Origin: Eubacteriales bacterium
GTDB taxonomy: Bacteria > Bacillota > Clostridia > Oscillospirales > CAG-272
Assembly: GCA_045655025.1 (NCBI GenBank)
Contig: JAZOOM010000106.1
Location: 1-37,011, forward strand
DNA length: 37,011 bases
Direction of reading: 5' to 3'
Shown: piece by piece, positions 3,991 through 37,011 of the stretch
How positions within the stretch are numbered: the stretch's first letter is position 1
Layout of the letters: every line of letters begins with the position of its first letter
The notes under the pieces: generated by a model
Told to the model about the DNA's origin: nothing
The model's input: only the letters and a program-made list of their open reading frames with translations
The model's database searches: none
Made by a program: the position numbers and the translations under genes

Positions 3991-6900
3991 TCCAATCATT
4001 CTCCTTATTCTTGGCAATATCGGCTACGTCCAGAGCCAGCACCTTGGAGATGCCGCGCTCGGGCATGGTCACACCGTACAGGCGGGTGGCGGCGGCCATG
4101 GTGCCGCGGCGGTGGGTGATCATGATGAACTGGGTCTCGTCGGAGTAGCGCTTGATGTATTGGGCGAGACGCTCCACGTTGACCTCATCCAGGGCGGCCT
4201 CGATCTCATCGAGGATGCAGAAGGGGGTAGGATTGACCTTCAGAATGGCGAAGAACAACGCTACGCCGATGAAAGCCTGCTCACCGCCCGAAAGCTGCAT
4301 GAGGTTCTTGATGATCTTACCGGGAGGAGCGGCTTTGATCTCAATGCCGCATTCCAGTACGTTTTCAGGATCGGACAGGGACAGCTCGGCAGAGCCGCCT
4401 CCGAACAGCTCCGCGAAGGTCACACGGAAATTGTCGTTGATCTTGTTAAAGGCATCCACGAAGGCGGATTTCATCTGCCCCTCGTAGCGGTCGATGATCT
4501 GCAAAAGCTCGCGCTGAGACTTTTCCAGATCCGTCAGCTGAGCCGTCATCTCGTCGTAACGCTTCTTGGTCTCATTGTATTTCTCCACGGCATCGGGATC
4601 GAAGTGACCGATGAAGCGGAGCTTGTTGCGGCACTCCGTCTGGGTGGCCACTACCTCGGCTCGGTTCTCCGGGGTAACGGGCGGATACCCCAGGGCGATC
4701 GCATCGGCGCGGGAGAGCTCATAGTCATCCCACAATCTTCCCGACAGCTTATCCATTTCGGCTTGCAGAGCCGTGAGCTTGCTGTCAGCGGTGGTGAATT
4801 CACGGAATAGATTTTCCTTATGATCCATTTCCTCACGGAGACGAGTATTCAAGCTGTTCAGCTTGGTCTCAAAGGAAGCACTGTTCTCGTCCACGCGGGC
4901 TCGGTCTGAGAGCAGGGACGTCAAGGTTCCCTCGCCTTCACTGAAAAGGCGACGATTCTCGGCCTGAGCCGCGGCGCAATCCGACAGCTTTTGCCGATAG
5001 GCGGCTACGCGCTCATCATTAGCACGAATATCCCCTTCAACAGAGCTGATGCGATCCTTGCAAAGTCCGGCCAAAGTCTCCTCGGTCTCCACATCCTTGC
5101 GGGTAGCGGAAATGGAAATGGTGAGTTGAGTCTGTCTGGCTTCCAGGCGGTCTACAGCATCGTCCTTATCGCCTCGCTCCTCGGCCTTTTCGGCTCGAAG
5201 CTGACGCAGCTCACCGATAGCGGTATCCAACGCCTTTTCCTCCGCGCGGAGACTGACCATAGTCTCCTCATTCTCCTCGTTTTGACGGAGAATGGCCTCG
5301 GAATCCTCTCGAACACGGGCCAGCAAAGCCTCGTTGGCATCCAAATTCGCCTGGGCACGGCCAAGTCGCTCCACCTCACCCGCCATAACGGCACGAATCA
5401 GATCCCGCTTGTCCTCCAGCGCGTTTTTCTCCTCGTCAGTTCGTTTGATCTCAGCGCGAATCGAGGCCAATTCAGCCTCTGTGGTGCGAACGCTTTCCTC
5501 CAGAGAAGCCAGATCTCCCTCCATCCGCTTGATCTCGGCGGCACGGGACAGAGCGCTGTTCTTGCGGCCGGTGGAACCGCCCGTAAAGGAACCGCCCACA
5601 TTGATCTGCTGACCGTCCAGAGTCACGACACGGACACGGTATTTCAGTGCCTTCGCCATTACGGTAGCGTGATCAATGGTATCGAAAACCAACGTCCGCC
5701 CCAGCAGAGAGGACAACACACTTCTGTAACGCTCGTCACAGGTCACCAGCGTATCGGCCACAGCCACGTAGCCCGCAAAGCCGATGGCACGCTTCATATC
5801 GTCGGTCTCGGAGGAGGGACGCATGGAGGTCAGAGGATAGAAGGTGGTACGACCCGCGTTCGCGCGCTTTAGCGCGTAAATAGCGGCCTTAGCGGTCTCC
5901 TCATCCTCCACAAGAATATTCTGAAGATTACTGCCCAAAGCCGTCTCCACAGCGATGACGTAATCCTGCTCCACCGAAATCAACTGGGACAGGGGGCCAT
6001 AGATATGGCCGCAGGGAGCGCCGTTGTATCCGGTGATACGGCCTTCCCGGTAGGCCTTCATAACAAACTTTACCGCGTCGGCATAGCCTTCGAACTGTGA
6101 CTCCATGGCACGATAAGTGGTGATACGCTGGGTCACGGAATCACGGCGAAGAATCGCGGAATTGTGTTTCTCGTGGAGGCTACCGTAAGTCTCGTTAAGC
6201 TCCGCCAGCTTGGCTTCAGCGGTTGTGATGCCCTCACCGATCTCTCCGACCTTCTTGGTGTAGCCATCCACCACACGGCTGTGATCCTCCACTTCCTTTC
6301 GCAGGACCTCGGAGGTGCTTTCATACTCCTCAATCTCGGAAAGAATGCCGCTGTTACGGTCACTGTCGGAGTCACGGGTGGTCTCCAGCACGGACAGGCG
6401 GACACGAACGTCCATGAGCTCCGCTTCACGGGCGCGGATATCCTCGGCGGCGGTATCGATGAGGGTATCCAACCCATCGATCTTTTCGCGAAGGGCGGTG
6501 ATCTCCTCGTCGTTGCGGGTGTATTCCCCTTCCAGTTCGGCAAGCGTATCCGCCAAAGCACCGCAGGTTTTTTGATGAGCCTCAAGCTGTCCCTTATCGT
6601 TCTCCATCTGGCGAAGCAGACCGGAACGGGTTTCGGCGGCGGCGGAAATCAGCTCCTCGGTGTGGGAAATAGTGGTCTCGGTCACACGGTATTCACTGTC
6701 CAGCTTATGCTGATACTCGGTCAGCTCGGAGATTTTTCCCCGCAGCTCCTCGGATGCCGCACGGCTGCCTTGGGTCATTTCGGTGAGGCGCTCCCGCTGC
6801 ACGTCCAAAGCCTGAACGGACTCCTCTGCCTGATTCAGATCGAATTCGGCGCGATTTCGCAGGGAGGATGCGTCGGCAATGTCACGGCTGAGACGATCGG

Positions 6901-19867: not shown

Positions 19868-19942
19868 GGCCCATTGGTCAAGCGGTTAAGACGCTAGCCT
19901 CTCACGCTGGAAACTCGGGTTCGATTCCCGGATGGGTCACCA
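19868..19942 (+). tRNA. tRNA-Glu (anticodon CUC), CCA encoded
   Basis: Manual cloverleaf. Acceptor stem GGCCCAT/ATGGGTC, D-loop AGCGGTTAA, anticodon stem CTAGC/GCTGG with loop CT-CTC-AC, T-arm TCGGG-TTCGATT-CCCGG, discriminator A plus CCA. Confidence 0.88.
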
Positions 19943-25931: not shown

Positions 25932-26717
25932 TCATACGGTTTTGAGGATCTCCATGAAGGGTCTCGCATCACGGATGGCCGTATCAAAATCCGGCTTCCA
26001 AGTACATTCCAGGCTAATGCGCTCAATGTTGGGACACTGAGCAAGCACAGATGCCACCAGCTTTAATGTCTCCTCATCATCCGCACAAGGCACCAACCGA
26101 TCACCCCGTCTCGCGAAGTGGGCATGAAACAGACGGTCCGCATACGCGGGGAGGGTGGACATATCCTCCTCATTGTTCCAGAAATGATAAAAGTCAACCA
26201 AAGTGCCCACAGAGGGATGTCCCGACAGATCGGCCACGGCTGCCCCCTCTTTCACGGTGTGAATGAAATTACACTCCCTGCGTGACAGGGGCTCTACCAC
26301 GATCCTCATGCCATGCCCTGAGGCAATCTCACCCAGAACGGCCAGCACGTTGGCAAACTGCCGCTCGGTTTCTTCCTTGGTCAGACCCTCGGGAATCCCG
26401 CGGACGTAACCGCTTCCGATGACTGCGACCTTTCCTCCCCACATAGCGGCACGCGAAAAGCCTTTTTCGGCAAAGGCCGCGATATTTTGCAGCAGGGGCT
26501 CCTGACCTCCGTCAAGGGCATACAATTTGCTCCCGCCCGGGAAGAAGATACAGAAGGCCTCTGCCTTGATGGGAGATGCCTGCACAATGGCAGTCATTTC
26601 CGCAAATGCTTGCTCATCGAGGCCCGTCATCCAGCTGAAATTCGGCTCGATATAATCGTAGCCCAATTCCGCTGCCAATTGCATCTTATCCGGTGATGTA
26701 CATACTCCGATCTTCAT
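25932..26717 (-). CDS. Sugar phosphate isomerase/epimerase (xylose-isomerase-like TIM barrel)
   Basis: MKIGVCTSP...GYDYIE...VVEPLSRRECNFIHT...LVDFYHF fits the AP-endonuclease-2/xylose-isomerase-like barrel pattern. The ATG at 26717 lies 8 nt after GGAGG. Confidence 0.78.
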   Translation of the reverse strand: MKIGVCTSPDKMQLAAELGYDYIEPNFSWMTGLDEQAFAEMTAIVQASPIKAEAFCIFFPGGSKLYALDGGQEPLLQNIAAFAEKGFSRAAMWGGKVAVIGSGYVRGIPEGLTKEETERQFANVLAVLGEIASGHGMRIVVEPLSRRECNFIHTVKEGAAVADLSGHPSVGTLVDFYHFWNNEEDMSTLPAYADRLFHAHFARRGDRLVPCADDEETLKLVASVLAQCPNIERISLECTWKPDFDTAIRDARPFMEILKTV

Positions 26718-27011: not shown

Positions 27012-27746
27012 ATGAATATCGATTACAATGTCTTTCATTATCGCAATGCAAAGCTTCTCAGCGTTTTCGAGCTTCATCCCTGTATCATACAGTATTACGA
27101 CCTTACTATAGTATTGAGCGGTGAGCTTTCCTACCGGGTCAATGAACAGCAGATCACTCTGAAACAGGGAGATATTATGCTGTTACCCCCCGGAACATGG
27201 AGGGCCCGGGATCTGCAAACCAAGGAAGTGCATTATGTCAGCTTCAATTTTTACACGGAGCGTAAAATTGATCTGCCGCTCATCATGAAAGGAGCTGCTA
27301 CCGCCGAGATCCGTGCCCTCTTTAAGGCCTTTACGCCGCCCCATCTTTCCGTTTTGGAAAGAGGCAAGGAAAAAGCAGCCTGTATAGTCGGGTATATTTT
27401 GGAAGCGCTGACGGTTTTCAATCAACATAGCAGCAGAAATCCGCATATTCAAAAGGCTCTCAGCTATATCGATGAACACATTTTCGAGGCGATCAGTCTC
27501 TCCTCGCTTGCCGTTCACCTGCATCTGTCCCGAGAGTATACCGCGTCCCTCTTCAAAAAAGAAGTGGGGGTTCCCGTTTCGGCTTACGTCAATGAAAAAA
27601 AGCTATTGCTCGCCCGCGATCTGATACGTGATGATGAATATTCACTGACAGACATTGCCAAAATGCTCGGTTATGCGAATTACGGATACTTCTCACGGTT
27701 GTACAAAAAACGGTTTGGAGCTTCACCGTCGCAATACCAATCTTAA
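27012..27746 (+). CDS. AraC-family transcriptional regulator (cupin sensor + HTH)
   Basis: The C-terminus DIAKMLGYANYGYFSRLYKKRFGASPSQY is the AraC HTH signature, and the N-terminus is cupin-like. Divergent from the BNR/isomerase operon. Confidence 0.88.
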   Translation: MNIDYNVFHYRNAKLLSVFELHPCIIQYYDLTIVLSGELSYRVNEQQITLKQGDIMLLPPGTWRARDLQTKEVHYVSFNFYTERKIDLPLIMKGAATAEIRALFKAFTPPHLSVLERGKEKAACIVGYILEALTVFNQHSSRNPHIQKALSYIDEHIFEAISLSSLAVHLHLSREYTASLFKKEVGVPVSAYVNEKKLLLARDLIRDDEYSLTDIAKMLGYANYGYFSRLYKKRFGASPSQYQS

Positions 27747-27995
27747 CGTTTTTCTTTCATAATTTGCAATGACCTATTTGGATAGATTGTCATATCTTTT
27801 ATGGTATAATTATATATGATGGAAATAAGTTCCCAATTATTTGCTATTCCCGTCGATTTTCGTGCCAAAATGTTATATTTCTGCCAGCTGATTGCATAAT
27901 TGCGCCAATCGGGATGTAACGGTCATGTGCGTTGTCCCCGGCCGCTAAATCCGAATGTAACCATTCAGCCAATGTTTCAAATTGCTGTTTATCGG

Positions 27996-28184
27996 CCAGG
28001 GCTCTGCCCTGGACCCGCTTAAGGGACTTTTGAAAAAGTCCCTTAAGAATCCCCAAAACTTTCAAAAAAGGATTATTTTACAATACTTTTTGAAAGTTTT
28101 TGGAGTTCTTAGAACCTTCGCAAACTTTGCCGCAGGCAAATTTGCCCCGAGCGTAAGCGAGGATGTTTTCAAAAAGGTTCTAAG
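27996..28184. repeat. Cluster of nested palindromes (REP/MITE-like intergenic element)
   Basis: P1 is CCAGGGC-TCT-GCCCTGG (27996-28012). P2 has perfect 14-bp arms CTTAAGGGACTTTT/AAAAGTCCCTTAAG (28018-28047). P3 has about 18-bp arms (28053-28070 / 28086-28103). P4 has 11-bp arms CTTAGAACCTT/AAGGTTCTAAG (28108-28118 / 28174-28184) and encloses P5, TTTGCC-GCA-GGCAAA (28126-28140). Confidence 0.8.
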
Positions 28185-28238
28185 CCGCCGGAGGCCGTGC
28201 CCCCTCATCGATAAACCCAAATTTGAAGGAGACTCACC

Positions 28239-28835
28239 ATGAGAAAAAAGCGCACCCAGACCACCAAAGCCAAGATTGTATCGGCGGCGTGGAAGCTGTT
28301 CTACGAGCAGGGCTACGAGGACACCACCGTGGACGATATCGTGTACGAGTCCGGCACCTCCAAGGGCTCCTTCTACCATTATTTCAGCGGCAAGGATGCC
28401 CTTCTCTCCTCCCTGTCCTACCTCTTTGACGAGAAGTATGAGGAGCTGACCGACAGCCTCACCCCCGACATGACGGCGGTGGACAAGCTTCTGTATCTCA
28501 ACTACGAGCTCTTCCGCCTCATTGAGAACTCCATCTCCATGGAGCTTCTGGCTCGCCTGCTCTCCACCCAGCTGGTCACCAAGAGCGAAAAGCACCTGCT
28601 GGATCACGACCGCACCTACTACCGCCTGCTCCGCACCATTTTTGCGGATGGACAGCAATCGGGAGAGTTCGGCACCGACTTCTCGGTCAACGAGATGGTC
28701 AAGACCTTCGCCCTGTGGGAGCGGGCCATCCTGTACGACTGGTGTCTGGTGGGAGGCGAATACCCCCTGGCCGAGTACGGCCGCCGCAATCTGCCCCTGA
28801 TCCTCACGGGATACAAGGCCCACGTCGACGCGTAA
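28239..28835 (+). CDS. TetR/AcrR-family transcriptional regulator
   Basis: KAKIVSAAWKLFYEQGYEDTTVDDIVYESGTSKGSFYHYF is the canonical TetR N-terminal HTH. The ATG lies 8 nt after AAGGAG. Confidence 0.9.
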   Translation: MRKKRTQTTKAKIVSAAWKLFYEQGYEDTTVDDIVYESGTSKGSFYHYFSGKDALLSSLSYLFDEKYEELTDSLTPDMTAVDKLLYLNYELFRLIENSISMELLARLLSTQLVTKSEKHLLDHDRTYYRLLRTIFADGQQSGEFGTDFSVNEMVKTFALWERAILYDWCLVGGEYPLAEYGRRNLPLILTGYKAHVDA

Positions 28836-32732: not shown

Positions 32733-35300
32733 TCAATTCCTCAGCAGGATCTCGTGAGTACCCGAGCCCATTTTCAATACCAAGTTGCCCTTGCGGAAGT
32801 AGCCTACAGAGCCGGCGGGAACGGTGATGGTATAGGTGGTCTTGTCTTCCTCCCGCAGGAAAGCAACCTTGATCTCACCGTAGGGGGAGATATGGCTGAC
32901 GGTGGCAGAAGGAATGGCGGTGTAGTCGCAGGGACAAACCTCAAAGGTAGCAAAGCCGGGTTCCATGGGTTGGATACCTGCCACGTGGGCGTAGAGGAAG
33001 TAGGCAAAGCCCGAGTGCATGGGGTGGTTGTAGGAGGCGGTGCCGACCTCACGGGGCATACCGATGCCCTTATGCTCCAGGCACTCCCACAGGGAGGTTG
33101 CGCCGTCGTCCAGCATAGTACCGAAGCTGAAGTGGTCACGGTTGAACATGTACTTCAGAGCCACGTCACCGTAGCCGGCCTCGGACAGAGCGGGAATGAG
33201 GTACTTGTTGCCGTAGATGCCCGTGGACATGGCGTAGTCGTCTTCCTCCATAAGCTTCAGAAGAGCTTCCAGCAGGGCGTCGCGCTCACCGTCGGGGTAC
33301 AGACCCGTCTTCAGAGCCACGCCGCAGGTGCCCCAGGTGGAGTAGCGGTGCTCCTCCGGGATCCAGAAGTGGCGGTTGAAGGCCTCCTTAATGTTGGCGG
33401 CCAGCTCTGCGTAATCCAGCTTGGTGGGAAGTCCCAGCTCGCGGGACAGTTCATCCATCAGACAGGCGGTCTCGTAGAACATGGCGGTGGAGGACTCGGG
33501 CACGGGAATGCGGCGCTCGTGGTGGTTGCCCAAAGGAGGACACCAGTCGCCGAGGCCCCGGGAAATGATCAGCTCGTCCTCGTACTGGGACTTGTCGTTT
33601 CTCGCGTCGTTGATCTCGTGCTGCATCCACTTCTCCATCTGATCCCAGTGAGAGCGGACGATGGCATCGTTGCCGTAGTAGCGGTACATCCAGTAGGGCA
33701 TGATGACGTTGGCACAGCCCCACAGGGGAGAAGCCTCCCCACAGCCGCGCTTACCGGGGGCGATCATCTGCCATACGCCGTAGACCTCATCCTCGGTGCG
33801 GAAATCGTGGATATACTTCTCGTAGGAGGCCTCCATATCGTAGTTCATGATACCCGTGTTGCACACCACCTGGGCGTCACCCAGCCAGCCGCACTTCTCG
33901 CGGCCGGGGCAATCCTCGGGGAAGCCGTGGTAGTTGGAGCGGAAGGTGGACATCATGATGGTCTGCAAATGATTCAGATCCTCATAGGCGCACGTAAAAC
34001 TGCCCGCCCGGGTCAGATCGGTGGACATGACGTGGCACACGCCGATGGTCAGCTCGGGGTTGGAGCCGTAGGCACGGAGATCGTGGTAGCCCGTGATCTC
34101 CATGTAGCGGAAGGCGTGATAGGTGAAGCGGGGTCTCCAGGTCTCACCGTGAGCGTCACCGCGGGCAATGTACACGTCTTGCTGGATGCACTGGGTGGCG
34201 AAGGAGCCGATGGAGCGGAAGTCCAGGGTGCCGTCGGGGTTAGTGGTCTCGGCAAAGCGGAGGGTCACCTGCGCGCCGCGGGGAGAGTTGGGGATGTGGA
34301 TCTCCACCATACCCGCCACGTTCTCACCGAAGTCCACAATCCACGCGCCGTCGTCCTTGCCGCTGGCCTGCTTGACCGACAGAGCGGGGAGGGTGCGGAT
34401 GATACGGACGGGGGGCATCATGCAGAGCTTCAGCTCGCCGCGAGGGGTGGTGTCCTCGATCACGGAGCCCCACTCCTCCTCGTCGCCGTCGTAATCGGCA
34501 AAATCGGGAGTTTCCAGACGGCAGTCGTAGGTCTCGCCGCCGTAGAGGTTGTTGAGGGAGATGGGACTGTACTTGTACTTCCAGTCGGCGGTGTTGGTGG
34601 CAATCGTCTGCTTCTCGCCGTTCTCATAGGTGATCTCCAGCTGAGCCAGCAGGCACACGTCACCGTACTTGAAGCCCTTGCTTCCCCAAACGCGGGACTG
34701 GGAGTACCAGCCCTCGCCCAGAAGAGCGGTGAAGGCGTTCTTCTCGGCAAGGAAGGAGGTCACGTCATAGATGCGGTAGAAGACTTCCTTCTCGTAGTTG
34801 GTGAAGGGAGGATCAATCATGTCCTCGGTGATCTTCTGCCCGTTGATGTAGTACTCGCCGCAGCCCAGACCGCAGACGAAGAGCTTGGCGGCCTTGATAC
34901 CGTCCTTGGCCTCGAACTTGGTGCGCAGATAGGGTGCCCAGCCCTCGATATGTTTTTTGGGCTTGATCCATACGCCCTCCCACTCGTCGGGGGCGATGGC
35001 GGTGAAGAACTCCACCGAAGCGGTGGCGGTCTCGCCGTGGTTGTCGGTGACGGTGACGGTCAGGGTGTAGTCGGAGCGGGTGTCCAGCACAGCCTCCACG
35101 GGGACGTGAACAGACTTGGTGCTTCCCTCCCCCACCCAAGAGGGGGCATCACACCCAACCTTGGTGATGGCAGCCTTGTAGGCAACCTGCAAAACGTCCA
35201 CGTTGTCGGAATCCAGCTTCCAACCGATATACAGATCCTTGCAGGGGGCGTATGCGGGGTTCTTTACGGCGTTGATGGAGAGGTCGTAGAGCTTCAGCAT
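32733..35300 (-). CDS. Alpha-L-rhamnosidase (GH78)
   Basis: 855 aa. EDCPGREKCGWLGDAQV and RGLGDWCPP are GH78 catalytic-domain hallmarks. The N-terminus DLSINAVKNP...IGWKL is typical of bacterial rhamnosidases. Confidence 0.88.
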   Translation of the reverse strand: MLKLYDLSINAVKNPAYAPCKDLYIGWKLDSDNVDVLQVAYKAAITKVGCDAPSWVGEGSTKSVHVPVEAVLDTRSDYTLTVTVTDNHGETATASVEFFTAIAPDEWEGVWIKPKKHIEGWAPYLRTKFEAKDGIKAAKLFVCGLGCGEYYINGQKITEDMIDPPFTNYEKEVFYRIYDVTSFLAEKNAFTALLGEGWYSQSRVWGSKGFKYGDVCLLAQLEITYENGEKQTIATNTADWKYKYSPISLNNLYGGETYDCRLETPDFADYDGDEEEWGSVIEDTTPRGELKLCMMPPVRIIRTLPALSVKQASGKDDGAWIVDFGENVAGMVEIHIPNSPRGAQVTLRFAETTNPDGTLDFRSIGSFATQCIQQDVYIARGDAHGETWRPRFTYHAFRYMEITGYHDLRAYGSNPELTIGVCHVMSTDLTRAGSFTCAYEDLNHLQTIMMSTFRSNYHGFPEDCPGREKCGWLGDAQVVCNTGIMNYDMEASYEKYIHDFRTEDEVYGVWQMIAPGKRGCGEASPLWGCANVIMPYWMYRYYGNDAIVRSHWDQMEKWMQHEINDARNDKSQYEDELIISRGLGDWCPPLGNHHERRIPVPESSTAMFYETACLMDELSRELGLPTKLDYAELAANIKEAFNRHFWIPEEHRYSTWGTCGVALKTGLYPDGERDALLEALLKLMEEDDYAMSTGIYGNKYLIPALSEAGYGDVALKYMFNRDHFSFGTMLDDGATSLWECLEHKGIGMPREVGTASYNHPMHSGFAYFLYAHVAGIQPMEPGFATFEVCPCDYTAIPSATVSHISPYGEIKVAFLREEDKTTYTITVPAGSVGYFRKGNLVLKMGSGTHEILLRN

Positions 35301-35363
35301 AGCGTTGTTTTCCTTTCAGAAAAGAATTTCATGGGGGATTTAAATTTATGTCGGGGAGGACAC

Positions 35364-35585
35364 GCGCCCGTAAGGGCGCATATCGAGCCGCCTTGGCGGC
35401 ATATCGAACCGCAAAGGCTTAGGCCGAGCGGTATATCGAGCACCCGAATGGGTGCATATCGACAAAAAAGCGCTTAATCGGTCGATATACGCCTTGCGGC
35501 GTTCGATATGTGCGTCGTTTCCCGCCGCACTCGATATTCCGCTCGGGCTTTGCCCGAGACGGATCGATATGCCCCCTTCGGGGGC
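35364..35585. repeat. Mirror-symmetric array of eight variable GC hairpins, each abutting the heptamer ATATCGA / TCGATAT
   Basis: ATATCGA is at 35380, 35401, 35433 and 35456. TCGATAT is at 35482, 35503, 35531 and 35564. Each copy abuts a different stem-loop, for example GCGCCC-GTAA-GGGCGC, GCCGCC-TT-GGCGGC, GCACCC-GAAT-GGGTGC and GCCCCC-TTC-GGGGGC. Confidence 0.85.
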
Positions 35586-35618
35586 GTGACGGGCTCCGCC
35601 AGCTAAACCGCAATTTAC

Positions 35619-37011
35619 TTAATTTTCGCCCTTAACGGTGACCACGCGGCAATCGCCGGTGTAGCCCGTAGAGGTGATGTACTGGGGCACTCCGTTGGGG
35701 AACACGTCCTCGTGGTTGAAGTGGACGTGGCCTGCAAAGACAGCCACCACGGGGGTATCCTCAGCCACGCAAACGGCGTTGTAGAACCGCTGCACCGATC
35801 CCCAATCGCTGCCCATGGCACCGGGGCCCATGGTGATGTTGCGGTTGCCCCAAGCCTTACGGACGTCGGGCTCCAAGGTGTCAGCGTGAAGCGGAACGTG
35901 GAGAAGCAGAATGATGGGCTTGCCGCGCTCGCAGAGTGCCATGAACTTGTTCACGGTGTCATCGGTGACCACGTCGGAGCTGTTATCCACAGCGACCACG
36001 ATGAATTCATCGTATTCTACGTAGGAGAGGTATGGGTCGCCGCCCGTCAGGTCGTTGAACAGGGGGCGGTTGACGGTGACGGAGTTACCCGTCATGTAGT
36101 CGTCGGAGTAGTTCCAGTCGTGGTTGCCCAGACAGAAGATGGACTTGCCGGTGAAGCGGCCCACGTTCTCGTAGAGCAGAGCGATGTTCTTCTCCGAGGG
36201 GAAGTCGATGAGGTCGCCCGTGAGGAACATACCGTCGGCTTTGATCTCATTGGCGTAGTCAAAGAGCAGGGGGAAGCGCTCCTCGGCGTACAGACCGTCT
36301 GCCATGAAGGAATTGCGGCGGGCGGTGTTGTACTGGATACGGGTAGCCGTCCACTTCTTCTGATCGGCATCCGAGAAGGCGGAAACGTGGCTGTCGGTGA
36401 CGTGGAGGAACTTGTATTCCTTGGTCAGACCCGGGATGACCACGGTAGCGGTGGAGGGCTTGAGCAGATCGGTGCCCATGGTTTGCAGAGCGGTGACCTT
36501 ATCCTTCACGAAGGCGATGGACTTGATATACACCGTCTCCCCCGCGGCGGCGGGCTTATCCAGAAAGTCGAAGCGGAGCTCGGTAAGGGTGCCGTCGTAG
36601 GCCTCGGTCACCAGAGGAAGCAGGACGTACTGCCAGCCCTTTTCGGCCTTCTTGAAGGTGCCCTCGGTGCGGACGGTCTTGGACTTTTCACCCGATTTGT
36701 TGTAGGCGGCCATTTCCACCTTGGTGTTGGTGGCGCTCTCCACCTTCATCAGCACCAGGGCCACACCGCAGTCGTTCCAGACCACGGGATCCAGCCCGGC
36801 GGCGGCCATGTAGGCGGCGTAGTCGATCTTGATATAGGGGTCACCGATGCGCTTGGTATCGGCCACGGTCAGCTTCAGTACGCTTCCCTGCTCTCCGTCC
36901 TGCACCACCGCGAACTCGGCCGCGGAATTGGGCTCGATGAAAGTGGCGTTGAGGGGGGTATCGCAGAAGGTCAGTACGGCGGCGTCGGTAGGAAGTCGGA
37001 GGCCAAGCGGT
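35619..37011 (-). CDS. Calcineurin-like metallophosphoesterase with N-terminal non-catalytic domain (5' end outside the window)
   Basis: MPE motifs HVTDSHV, GDLIDF, GNHDW, LLLHVPL and GHVHFNH. The frame stays open upstream of the track's GTG at 36908 to the window end (...LTFCDTPLNATFIEPNSAAEFAVV...), so the CDS is partial. Confidence 0.8.
   Translation of the reverse strand, partial: PLGLRLPTDAAVLTFCDTPLNATFIEPNSAAEFAVVQDGEQGSVLKLTVADTKRIGDPYIKIDYAAYMAAAGLDPVVWNDCGVALVLMKVESATNTKVEMAAYNKSGEKSKTVRTEGTFKKAEKGWQYVLLPLVTEAYDGTLTELRFDFLDKPAAAGETVYIKSIAFVKDKVTALQTMGTDLLKPSTATVVIPGLTKEYKFLHVTDSHVSAFSDADQKKWTATRIQYNTARRNSFMADGLYAEERFPLLFDYANEIKADGMFLTGDLIDFPSEKNIALLYENVGRFTGKSIFCLGNHDWNYSDDYMTGNSVTVNRPLFNDLTGGDPYLSYVEYDEFIVVAVDNSSDVVTDDTVNKFMALCERGKPIILLLHVPLHADTLEPDVRKAWGNRNITMGPGAMGSDWGSVQRFYNAVCVAEDTPVVAVFAGHVHFNHEDVFPNGVPQYITSTGYTGDCRVVTVKGEN

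Follow-up and report, generated by a model that had tools for sequence, protein, structure and literature searches.

A 37,011-nt stretch of DNA from a Eubacteriales bacterium (contig JAZOOM010000106.1; hereafter, the window) carries, towards its right end, an array of eight hairpins interleaved with eight copies of the heptamer ATATCGA in two opposed blocks. We consider this array, with a probability of roughly 0.55, to be an orphan copy of a dispersed, apparently mobile palindromic DNA element, the heptamers of which would be sites of an Avd-like four-helix-bundle protein in single-stranded or extruded DNA. The array is located between two genes on the − strand, as an earlier note on this DNA had stated: one encodes a metallophosphoesterase (35619–36908) and the other a GH78 rhamnosidase (32733–35300).

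The heptamers, which we also call linkers, occur four times on the + strand and then four times on the − strand (Table 1). Counted on both strands, the window contains 13 heptamers, compared with 3.8 ± 2.0 in dinucleotide-preserving shuffles, none of which reached 13 (0/100). Eight of the 13 fall within 191 bp, where by our own arithmetic about 0.02 would be expected, and thus the eight copies there are not a product of chance. All eight segments between or beside the heptamers are hairpins, with stems that abut the heptamers without a single unpaired base. The eight stems are all different, so that the constant part is the 7-nt linker alone, and the heptamers are spaced by hairpins of 14–26 nt and never contiguous. 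Read in the orientation hairpin-ATATCGA, the loops are GTAA, GAAT, GCAA, GGAAA, AAA and GAA. The mirror-symmetric array at 35364–35585, the positions of its heptamers, their excess, and the grammar of constant linkers and variable stems had all been described in the earlier note, and all were confirmed by the sequence, the heptamer search and the shuffles. The eight hairpins that it listed are real as well, with corrections to three of them: GCCGCC-TT-GGCGGC opens to a 5-bp stem with a 4-nt loop, GTGCGTCG/CGCCGCAC contains one T-C mismatch, and the 11-bp hairpin has a bulged A.

GC-rich hairpins downstream of a gene might also have clustered by chance or represent ordinary intrinsic terminators in a stack. 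The probability of this explanation is practically negligible given the 13 heptamers against 3.8 expected, the lack of T-tracts and the recurrence of the same architecture in dozens of genomes (see below). No terminator-like site with a U/T-tract was found in 35150–35750, and no sigma-70-like promoter in the spacer; the earlier remark that the hairpins lack U-tracts therefore holds, and an intrinsic terminator is ruled out because no T-tract follows the hairpins.

We estimated the distribution of the array by searching one genome per species for three ATATCGA heptamers spaced 12–30 nt apart, which matched at least 120 genome stretches (stretches compared in this analysis bear L-numbers below). 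About 60 of the 120 matches listed were ladders, i.e., arrays with end-to-end hairpins between the heptamers, mostly in a 4 + 4 arrangement. Further units of hairpin plus ATATCGA, for which the earlier note had recommended a search, thus make up at least about 60 ladders among the matches listed. All of these ladders came from metagenome-assembled genomes (MAGs) of gut or rumen Clostridia, obtained from ruminant, other animal and human guts and labeled as Clostridia, Eubacteriales, Oscillospiraceae, Acutalibacteraceae, Christensenellaceae, Ruminococcaceae or Faecousia. Matches of the three-heptamer pattern in other phyla were coding tandem repeats or chance occurrences. Across ladder loci, the heptamer was constant and the stems varied. 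Two layouts were distinguished: type A (++++----), with a short spacer between the blocks, which is found in the window, L030, L057, L106 and L277, and type B (----++++), with a center of 24–34 nt.

Among the matches inspected on viral contigs, true ladders were present only in L159, L170 and L176. The ladder in L170 (1428–1571) is of type A with ATATCGA linkers and lies between terminase-large-subunit-like and portal-like genes, indicating that the element inserts into phage genomes too. Most viral-contig matches were not ladders but unrelated 21–22-nt iterons of an AT-rich phage group. In L144, L167, L179, L189, L213, L224 and L241, four such iterons (GGTACTCGRA-ATATCGA-YAGRGG) occur in a coding region without hairpins; that they contain the heptamer is coincidental, and they resemble the iteron set of a replication origin.

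No Rfam family matched the ladders at the gathering threshold, whether in the window, in the spacer (also at a relaxed E-value) or in 12 related loci, where the only Rfam matches were tRNAs and one SAM riboswitch located elsewhere than the ladders. The best sub-threshold match to the array was Gut-1, at 19.8 bits against a threshold of 50. Searches of the literature and Rfam, which cannot prove absence, yielded no description of the ladder or of the pairing of protein and heptamer set out below, in agreement with the earlier note, which knew of no described element with such a grammar.

The element is present in multiple copies per genome. At least 11 contigs of MAG RGIG8736 and three contigs of RGIG8715 contained a 20-mer of the window element. 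Nearly all of these copies are terminal on their contigs, as is typical of dispersed repeats at which short-read assemblies break off, and their neighbor genes differ (e.g., uvrA and a Mur-ligase-like gene). The copy most similar to that of the window (L277) has a different gene context, and L108 and L091 each hold two near-identical ladder copies a few kb apart. The orthologous phosphoesterase–GH78 spacer, which the earlier note had suggested comparing, varied among relatives with a phosphoesterase 80–91% identical to that of the window. The spacer was empty and about 50 nt long in L129 and L126 and contained other palindromic inserts in L121 and L133. In L122 and L124, it contained plain tandem heptamers (AATTCGT and AAATGCA, respectively) in inverted arrays.

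When its partly decayed outer arms are included, the whole element in the window extends over about 286 bp (approximately 35333–35618), longer than the earlier note had it. Its right end, TAAACCGCAATTTAC, resembles a terminal inverted repeat (TIR) and touches the metallophosphoesterase stop codon (35619–35621), and its left end precedes the GH78 start by about 35 nt. The ladder is thereby nested inside a second palindromic, TIR-bounded shell. Copies in RGIG8736 are bounded by GTAAATTGTTGTTTA...TAAACAACAATTTAC and often lie inside a further element that has these ends too. At type B copies, a dinucleotide is often shared by the two flanks (ca/ca, cg/cg or tt/tt), as a target-site duplication would be, albeit inconsistently, and most copies are cut by contig ends. 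The multicopy, mobile nature of the repeat, its absence from the orthologous spacer of relatives and its nesting in a second palindromic shell had all been missed by the earlier note. Elsewhere in the window, a second palindromic element without a ladder (27977–28227; DNA fold z = −7.9) lies just upstream of a gene start at 28240. It has the TIR-like ends CAAATTGCTGTTTATCG / CGATAAACCCAAATTTG, and its interior resembles the spacer inserts of L121 and L133, suggesting that the shell is a mobile family of its own.

Taken as a whole, the element apparently behaves like a non-autonomous mobile repeat. It shares with miniature inverted-repeat transposable elements a short, noncoding and multicopy nature, the breaking of assemblies, TIR-like ends (with TAAACCGCAATTTAC at 35604–35618 and a decayed left partner), presence or absence at orthologous sites and nesting in a palindromic element. 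It differs from them in that no transposase-encoding parent with the same ends was found; the gene-bearing relatives encode just a PF05635 protein of about 115 aa. Ladders with blocks 0.5–7 kb apart that enclose a transposase, as an autonomous element would, were sought among the ladders, and none were detected.

The candidate partner of the heptamers was identified by clustering the open reading frames (ORFs) within 3.5 kb of the ~60 ladders. A single gene family recurred, located 14–25 nt downstream of type B ladders and encoding a protein of about 116 aa. Transposases, integrases, reverse transcriptases and REP-associated tyrosine transposases (RAYTs) did not recur. The protein belongs to PF05635 (“23S rRNA intervening sequence protein”) and TIGR02436 (“four helix bundle protein”), is Avd-like, and closely resembles the uncharacterized protein of PDB entry 2RLD (E = 2e-35). 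Entries 2RLD and 2GSC each contain five chains. PF05635 and the Avd protein of diversity-generating retroelements are considered homologues (PMC10053308). None of the PADLOC defense models matched the four-helix-bundle protein.

A search in the reverse direction started from an alignment of five four-helix-bundle proteins, and the best 80 of more than 597 matching loci were kept. In 66 of the 80, the 420 nt upstream of the gene contained three or more copies of a heptamer together with three or more of its reverse complement. Among the 14 negative loci, six had less than 235 nt of upstream sequence, and the others included loci with a single block only or with degenerate linkers. Exactly four linkers were counted in the gene-proximal block of 62 of 76 loci and in the distal block of 50 of 76. 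End-to-end hairpins made up 168 of 193 and 180 of 242 inter-linker segments in these gene-linked ladders. Among the three functions proposed in the earlier note (an intercistronic RNA stabilizer or processing platform, a protein-binding array, and a target of a Y1/RAYT-like enzyme), a protein-binding array would fit best, with the four-helix-bundle gene standing beside the ladders and the heptamer following the protein subfamily.

Gene-linked ladders came in three arrangements. The commonest was L-center-R-gene, where L is the distal and R the proximal block. In L292 and L301, the arrangement is R-gene-L without an upstream L block, which is the type A layout of the window with the gene in the middle. 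In L287, L320, L323 and L341, it is L-center-R-gene-L, with two near-identical L blocks as direct repeats. These permuted arrangements resemble a single circular or tandem unit that was opened at different points. The window itself was searched with tblastn, and no four-helix-bundle gene was found anywhere in its 37 kb, making the window copy an orphan. Its apical spacer begins with CAAAAA, like the ribosome-binding-site leader past the last linker in gene-linked copies, and ends with TAATCGG before TCGATAT, where L292 has TAGATCG directly followed by TCGATAT past the stop codon. From these resemblances, we infer that the apical spacer may be the remnant of a deleted four-helix-bundle gene.

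The identity of the heptamer was found to follow the protein subfamily. Eight pairs of linkers were observed: TCGATAT/ATATCGA, GCGATAT/ATATCGC, GTGAAAT/ATTTCAC, GTGAAGT/ACTTCAC, TTGAAAT/ATTTCAA, ATGAAAT/ATTTCAT, ATGATAT/ATATCAT and GCTAAAT/ATTTAGC. The two blocks were always exact reverse complements, and all linker copies had changed together. The nearest-neighbor protein had the same linker type in 71 of 75 cases, a value reached in none of 2000 label permutations. One genome may hold two paralogous sets with different linkers. In the MAG RGIG6481, sets with TCGATAT and with GCGATAT linkers occur together with an orphan ATATCGA ladder (L302, L305 and L083). Such concordance between linker and protein would be the pattern expected of a private protein–site pair.

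We assessed the structure of the array by folding it with RNA parameters (− strand) and DNA parameters (+ strand), and the minimum free energy and centroid structures agreed. In both energy models, every ATATCGA pairs with a TCGATAT, giving the four 7-bp helices of the ladder, on which the eight hairpins are side arms at three perfect four-way junctions. The z-score of this fold was −7.2 for RNA and −7.4 for DNA, and no shuffle folded as well. The idea that the heptamers could pair over a long range into a branched structure, voiced in the earlier note, is borne out by folding in both models. Covariation was examined by aligning the window with seven relatives of its own subfamily and counting pairs on the ladder structure. 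Paired cells amounted to 91%, compared with 23–44% when the partners were slid. Double-sided changes occurred in 16 of 83 pairs (0/500 shuffles reach that), all of them in the side hairpins, and the bulged A of hairpin B3 was kept among relatives while the adjoining pairs swapped. The four linker helices are invariant within the ATATCGA subfamily and thus, taken alone, provide no evidence for or against their pairing.

The nature of the folded molecule was approached through the loops and mismatches of the hairpins and through the position of promoters. With each block read as hairpin-ATATCGA, 266 non-redundant hairpins contained 109 G..A loops and a single T..C loop. The closing pair was C:G in 99 of the 109 G..A loops, and GCGAAGC occurred 23 times and its complement never. 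The commonest loops were the triloops GAA, GCA and GTA and the tetraloops GCAA, GTCA, GTAA and GTTA, and position 3 of the G-N-N-A loops was a pyrimidine in about 40%. Hairpins of the d(C-GNA-G) type, in particular d(GCGAAGC), are exceptionally stable DNA mini-hairpins, and in the GNRA loops of RNA a pyrimidine at position 3 is rare. On the gene-sense strand, the ratio of G-T to A-C mismatches was 16:2 in the gene-proximal block and 1:8 in the distal block; an initial count over all pattern matches, non-ladders included, was uninformative (11 vs 8), and the gene-oriented count was used instead. As the two blocks are “good” on opposite strands, a single transcript cannot explain this asymmetry. 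As a separate observation, many ladders (e.g., L058, L060, L068, L312 and L343) contain one hairpin per block that is conserved across linker families, N3-4-GAGCGAAGYGA-N3-4, which is the GCGAAGC mini-hairpin flanked by tandem G-A/A-G mismatches.

Promoter positions varied. In four loci of the GCGATAT family (L317, L318, L325 and L331), a sigma-70-like promoter ends 22 nt before the first linker, and the ladder would be a leader there; promoters also lie just upstream of the ladder in L058 and L080. In five loci of the GTGAAAT family, the ladder is followed by TTGAAA-17-TATAAT and then by the ATG; the last linker directly adjoins the −35 box, placing the ladder upstream of the promoter. Many orphan copies begin 1–2 nt after an intrinsic terminator, leaving no room for a promoter. 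The loop rule, the mismatch asymmetry and the varying promoter position speak for single-stranded DNA and follow a two-fold symmetric logic; they favor DNA over RNA as the active form, although an RNA role may exist in some families.

A structured RNA is accordingly an unlikely alternative, in the form of either a 5′ leader that autoregulates the four-helix-bundle mRNA or, in orphans, an intercistronic structure for stabilization, processing or translational coupling. The strong fold (z = −7.2), the covarying hairpin stems and the promoters just upstream of the ladder (the GCGATAT-family loci, L058 and L080) would suit such a role. So would the distance of the last linker from the start codon, which is 9–30 nt in the TCGATAT and GCGATAT families, where only a ribosome-binding site fits between. 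A similar role has been speculated for the STRR (short tandemly repeated repetitive) hairpins between hupS and hupL (PMC2670836). However, one transcript would bear U..C loops and A-C mismatches in half of its hairpins, since the good orientation is dyad-symmetric, and the C:G-closed G-N-A triloops and position-3 pyrimidines fit DNA better than GNRA rules. Neither the GTGAAAT-family ladders upstream of the −35 box nor the many orphans adjoining a terminator suit a transcript, and no Rfam family matches the ladders of the window or of the 12 related loci. The stabilizer or processing platform on one strand that the earlier note had considered is therefore disfavored.

The center of type B ladders bears on the same alternative. 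A segment of 12–14 nt (e.g., GAGATTTATATC) is complementary to the outermost linker and the adjoining arm of the first hairpin (examples are L060 2085–2256, L093 6381–6559, L091 4507–4682 and L105 4197–4350) and covaries with them, even with the variant TCGAGAT/ATCTC in L091 and L105. This complementarity suggests that alternative folds are permitted; a guide or a promoter would be other candidate readings of the segment. Three further candidates did not hold. A promoter in the type B center had weak support (TTGCCT-17-TATCAT in three loci). A stand-alone small RNA gene was ruled out by the several copies that start 1–2 nt after a terminator, and RNA repeats like those of type III toxin–antitoxin systems were ruled out by non-identical units, inverted blocks and a varying promoter position.

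The heptamers could, alternatively, form a double-stranded operator- or centromere-like array, in which the protein binds 7-bp duplex repeats, the hairpins are mere spacers and the orphans are extra sites. The ω-protein heptads of plasmid pSM19035 and the parC/ParR system of plasmid R1 consist of short direct and inverted repeats at the promoter of the gene for the binding protein, each system with a private repeat; the repeats are contiguous, and the binding proteins of this type are ribbon-helix-helix dimers on duplex DNA. The ladder resembles these arrays in having repeats of about 7 bp, in both orientations, at the promoter of the presumed binder's gene, either upstream or downstream of the promoter itself. 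The tracking of protein subfamily by linker fits as well, as do the relatives in other phyla with contiguous heptads and no hairpins. However, the presumed binder of the ladder is a four-helix bundle, hairpins alternate with the repeats, and a single-strand signature is present. A duplex array needs neither hairpin spacers nor strand-specific loops, yet 168/193 and 180/242 segments are hairpins with C-GNA-G on one strand, and the G-T versus A-C asymmetry implies selection on single strands. We thus regard a duplex array as quite improbable.

A third alternative assigns the movement of the element to a Y1 (RAYT/TnpA) transposase that reads a hairpin plus a short motif, as for repetitive extragenic palindromes (REPs), the bacterial interspersed mosaic elements (BIMEs) and REPINs built from them, or IS200/IS605-type elements. 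The likeness is considerable: the ladders are intergenic and multicopy, consist of hairpins with a short conserved motif in opposed units, and probably act as single-stranded DNA, for which the single-strand signature speaks. REPs, however, have a conserved stem, a 5′ GTAG and a RAYT partner, whereas the ladder has a conserved linker, stems that are not conserved between units, no GTAG motif and a non-enzymatic four-helix-bundle partner. No Y1, RAYT or other transposase family recurred within 3.5 kb of the ~60 ladders, where PF05635 was the sole recurrent neighbor, and the strict 4 + 4 unit count is not a property of BIMEs. The RAYT/Y1 link raised in the earlier note is thus not upheld, and we consider this alternative highly improbable.

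Four-helix-bundle genes with heptamer arrays were also found beyond the Clostridia, in cyanobacteria, Chloroflexota and Treponema. A tblastn search against plasmid records detected “four helix bundle protein” genes in Nostoc, Anabaena, Planktothrix, Gloeocapsa, Chlorohelix and Treponema, and a pseudogene in Monoglobus. Inverted arrays of contiguous heptamers enclose the gene in all plasmid records inspected. For example, (AAGTCGC)n is upstream and (GCGACTT)n downstream of the gene in Nostoc sp. ATCC 53789, and about 4.5 and 5.5 heptamer units flank it in N. punctiforme. In Chlorohelix and Planktothrix, the whole L-center-R module is repeated before the ATG of the four-helix-bundle gene and before that of the next host gene. 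Genes with arrays also occur inside defense operons (L366, L361, L364 and L365), with insertion between cas2 and cas1 in Anabaena, between hsdS and hsdR in Monoglobus (the pseudogene), and between DUF1156 and a Swt1-family HEPN gene in Chlorohelix and Gloeocapsa.

These arrays recall the cyanobacterial STRRs, 7-bp arrays that are reported to form hairpins between genes such as hupS and hupL and have no known function (PMC2670836). The ladder of the window shares with STRRs the 7-nt unit, with four ATATCGA and four TCGATAT, the inverted arrays able to fold back and the location between co-directional genes. In STRRs, however, the heptamers are contiguous and yield one long stem, whereas those of the ladder are separated by hairpins and yield four-way junctions; moreover, the ladder hosts are gut Clostridia, and the block size is fixed at 4 + 4. 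Contiguous heptamer arrays were seen only in other loci (L122, L124, L360 and L362) and not in the window. STRR-like arrays flank the four-helix-bundle homologues of Nostoc, Anabaena, Planktothrix and Gloeocapsa, and no link between STRRs and a protein partner was found in the literature searched. The Clostridial ladder is best seen as a variant of the STRR-like array with a hairpin between heptamers, and the gene-less arrays of both lineages as orphan derivatives.

Within the protein family of the ladder partner, the closest known systems are the intervening sequences in 23S rRNA genes of Leptospira and Coxiella and the Avd proteins of diversity-generating retroelements. The intervening sequences comprise an ORF between inverted repeats that can pair into a long stem, a layout also seen in the R-gene-L arrangement. 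The ladder differs in being located outside rRNA, in having modular heptamer–hairpin repeats and no recurring reverse transcriptase nearby, and, for the window copy, in the missing ORF. Two other repeat systems were ruled out. A CRISPR array is excluded by the 7-nt repeat, palindromic spacers, inverted blocks and no cas genes in the window, and an integron attC array by eight hairpins in about 220 bp, no RYYYAAC/GTTRRRY core sites and no recurring integrase nearby.

We can now outline how the proposed mobile element might work. Its core consists of two inverted blocks, each with four 7-nt linkers and variable hairpins between them, and full-length relatives carry the ~115-aa gene beside or between the blocks. 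The heptamers would be private recognition and pairing sites of the four-helix-bundle protein, which for the window copy would be supplied from elsewhere in the genome. Recognition would take place while the DNA is single-stranded or extruded, when each block shows C-GNA-G-capped hairpins alternating with heptamers, and the two blocks could pair along their length as a rod in which four-way junctions connect four 7-bp helices. The protein–DNA complex may then serve the maintenance, spread or regulation of the element. The architecture, family membership, copy number, presence or absence at the orthologous site, gene association, concordance of linker and protein, and strand signature were observed directly; binding of the linkers by the protein, DNA as the active form and the manner of movement are inferred. 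The window copy is probably an insertion between two co-directional carbohydrate-related genes and a passenger there, with at most side effects on the transcript.

Several observations weigh against the proposed reading. Without a four-helix-bundle gene in the 37-kb window, the cognate protein in this organism is putative. No catalytic mobilizing enzyme was found. The concordance of linker and protein could reflect mere linkage of the gene and its upstream region, given that the gene adjoins the ladder and shared descent alone would also produce concordance; more weight attaches to the fact that all eight copies, in both blocks, have changed in concert. Support for pairing of the ATATCGA linker helices is limited to between-family comparison and folding energy, and template-switch correction of DNA palindromes could maintain perfect hairpins without selection on structure. 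Finally, at 9–30 nt from the ATG, the TCGATAT- and GCGATAT-family ladders must be transcribed, and thus an RNA role is possible there.

More broadly, PF05635/TIGR02436 proteins and private heptamer arrays may constitute one widespread, unrecognized two-part system, selfish or regulatory, a generalization that we offer tentatively and put somewhat short of even odds. The protein would read its own array in single-stranded or extruded DNA, and circularly permuted cassettes would have spread to operons, defense loci, phages and rRNA genes, leaving behind gene-less ladders and STRR hairpins. If the association holds, two orphans of the literature each gain a partner: the STRR arrays, catalogued since 1990 without a function, and the PF05635/TIGR02436 proteins, which are common, structurally solved and uncharacterized outside diversity-generating retroelements. 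The hypothesis that follows is that a small helical-bundle oligomer recognizes a 7-nt repeat in a sequence-specific manner. The Clostridial ladder would be a new nucleic-acid architecture, a chain of perfect four-way junctions, and it often accounts for the breaking of contigs in MAGs from rumen and gut. Ladders comprise at least eight linker types and would also offer ready-made orthogonal protein–site pairs.

Table 1. Features of the palindromic element in the window (coordinates refer to the 37,011-nt stretch).
Feature	Coordinates	Strand	Remarks
Left outer arm (“shell”)	35333–35363		decayed inverted copy of the right arm, contains ATTTAAATTTAT; aligned with L030, L057 and L277; pairs with 35586–35618 in folds
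Hairpin A1, GCGCCC-GTAA-GGGCGC	35364–35379	+	folds; loop is GCAA in L277
Linker R1, ATATCGA	35380–35386	+	pairs with 35564–35570
Hairpin A2, GCCGC-CTTG-GCGGC	35387–35400	+	helix 3; compensatory change in 4/5 pairs
Linker R2, ATATCGA	35401–35407	+	pairs with 35531–35537
Hairpin A3, ACCGC...GCGGT, with internal loop and inner GGC-TTAG-GCC stem	35408–35432	+	helices 5 and 6
Linker R3, ATATCGA	35433–35439	+	pairs with 35503–35509
Hairpin A4, GCACCC-GAAT-GGGTGC	35440–35455	+	helix 8; compensatory change in 4/6 pairs
Linker R4, ATATCGA	35456–35462	+	pairs with 35482–35488
Apical spacer, CAAAAAAGCGCTTAATCGG	35463–35481		position of the four-helix-bundle gene in the R-gene-L relatives L292 and L301
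Linker L4, TCGATAT on the + strand	35482–35488	−	heptamer search
Hairpin B1, ACGCC-TTGC-GGCGT	35489–35502	−	loop is GCAA on the − strand
Linker L3, TCGATAT	35503–35509	−	heptamer search
Hairpin B2, GTGCGTCG-TTTCC-CGCCGCAC	35510–35530	−	one mismatch
Linker L2, TCGATAT	35531–35537	−	heptamer search
Hairpin B3, 11-bp stem with conserved bulged A	35538–35563	−	helix 12
Linker L1, TCGATAT	35564–35570	−	heptamer search
Hairpin B4, GCCCCC-TTC-GGGGGC	35571–35585	−	loop is GAA on the − strand
Right outer arm	35586–35618		ends in TAAACCGCAATTTAC (35604–35618); the same terminal motif bounds copies in other gene contexts

Hairpin–linker arrays with linkers other than heptamers of the eight pairs were encountered in several of the stretches compared. 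A sister ladder with the 9-nt linker AGTGATATT/AATATCACT and with AGTTCTATT is present in L140 (about 5390–5620), approximately 100–330 nt downstream of a phosphoesterase homologue; its hairpins are variable (e.g., GCCCGAAGGGC). Arrays with the linkers CAATTCATG and ACATCATG stand beside ATATCGA blocks in L049 (downstream of 1823), L118 (upstream of 2514) and L096 (621–1445), the last of which is a tandem repeat of about 396 nt of composite modules, plain AATTCGG heptamers included.

Elsewhere in the window, a tRNA gene was predicted on the + strand (19868–19939, 59.8 bits). The GC content of the segment 26001–28000 is low (0.47, compared with about 0.57 elsewhere), and an AraC-family regulator gene (27012–27746) lies inside it. 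Isolated copies of ATATCGA, outside any array, occur in this low-GC segment at 26647, 27016 and 27466.

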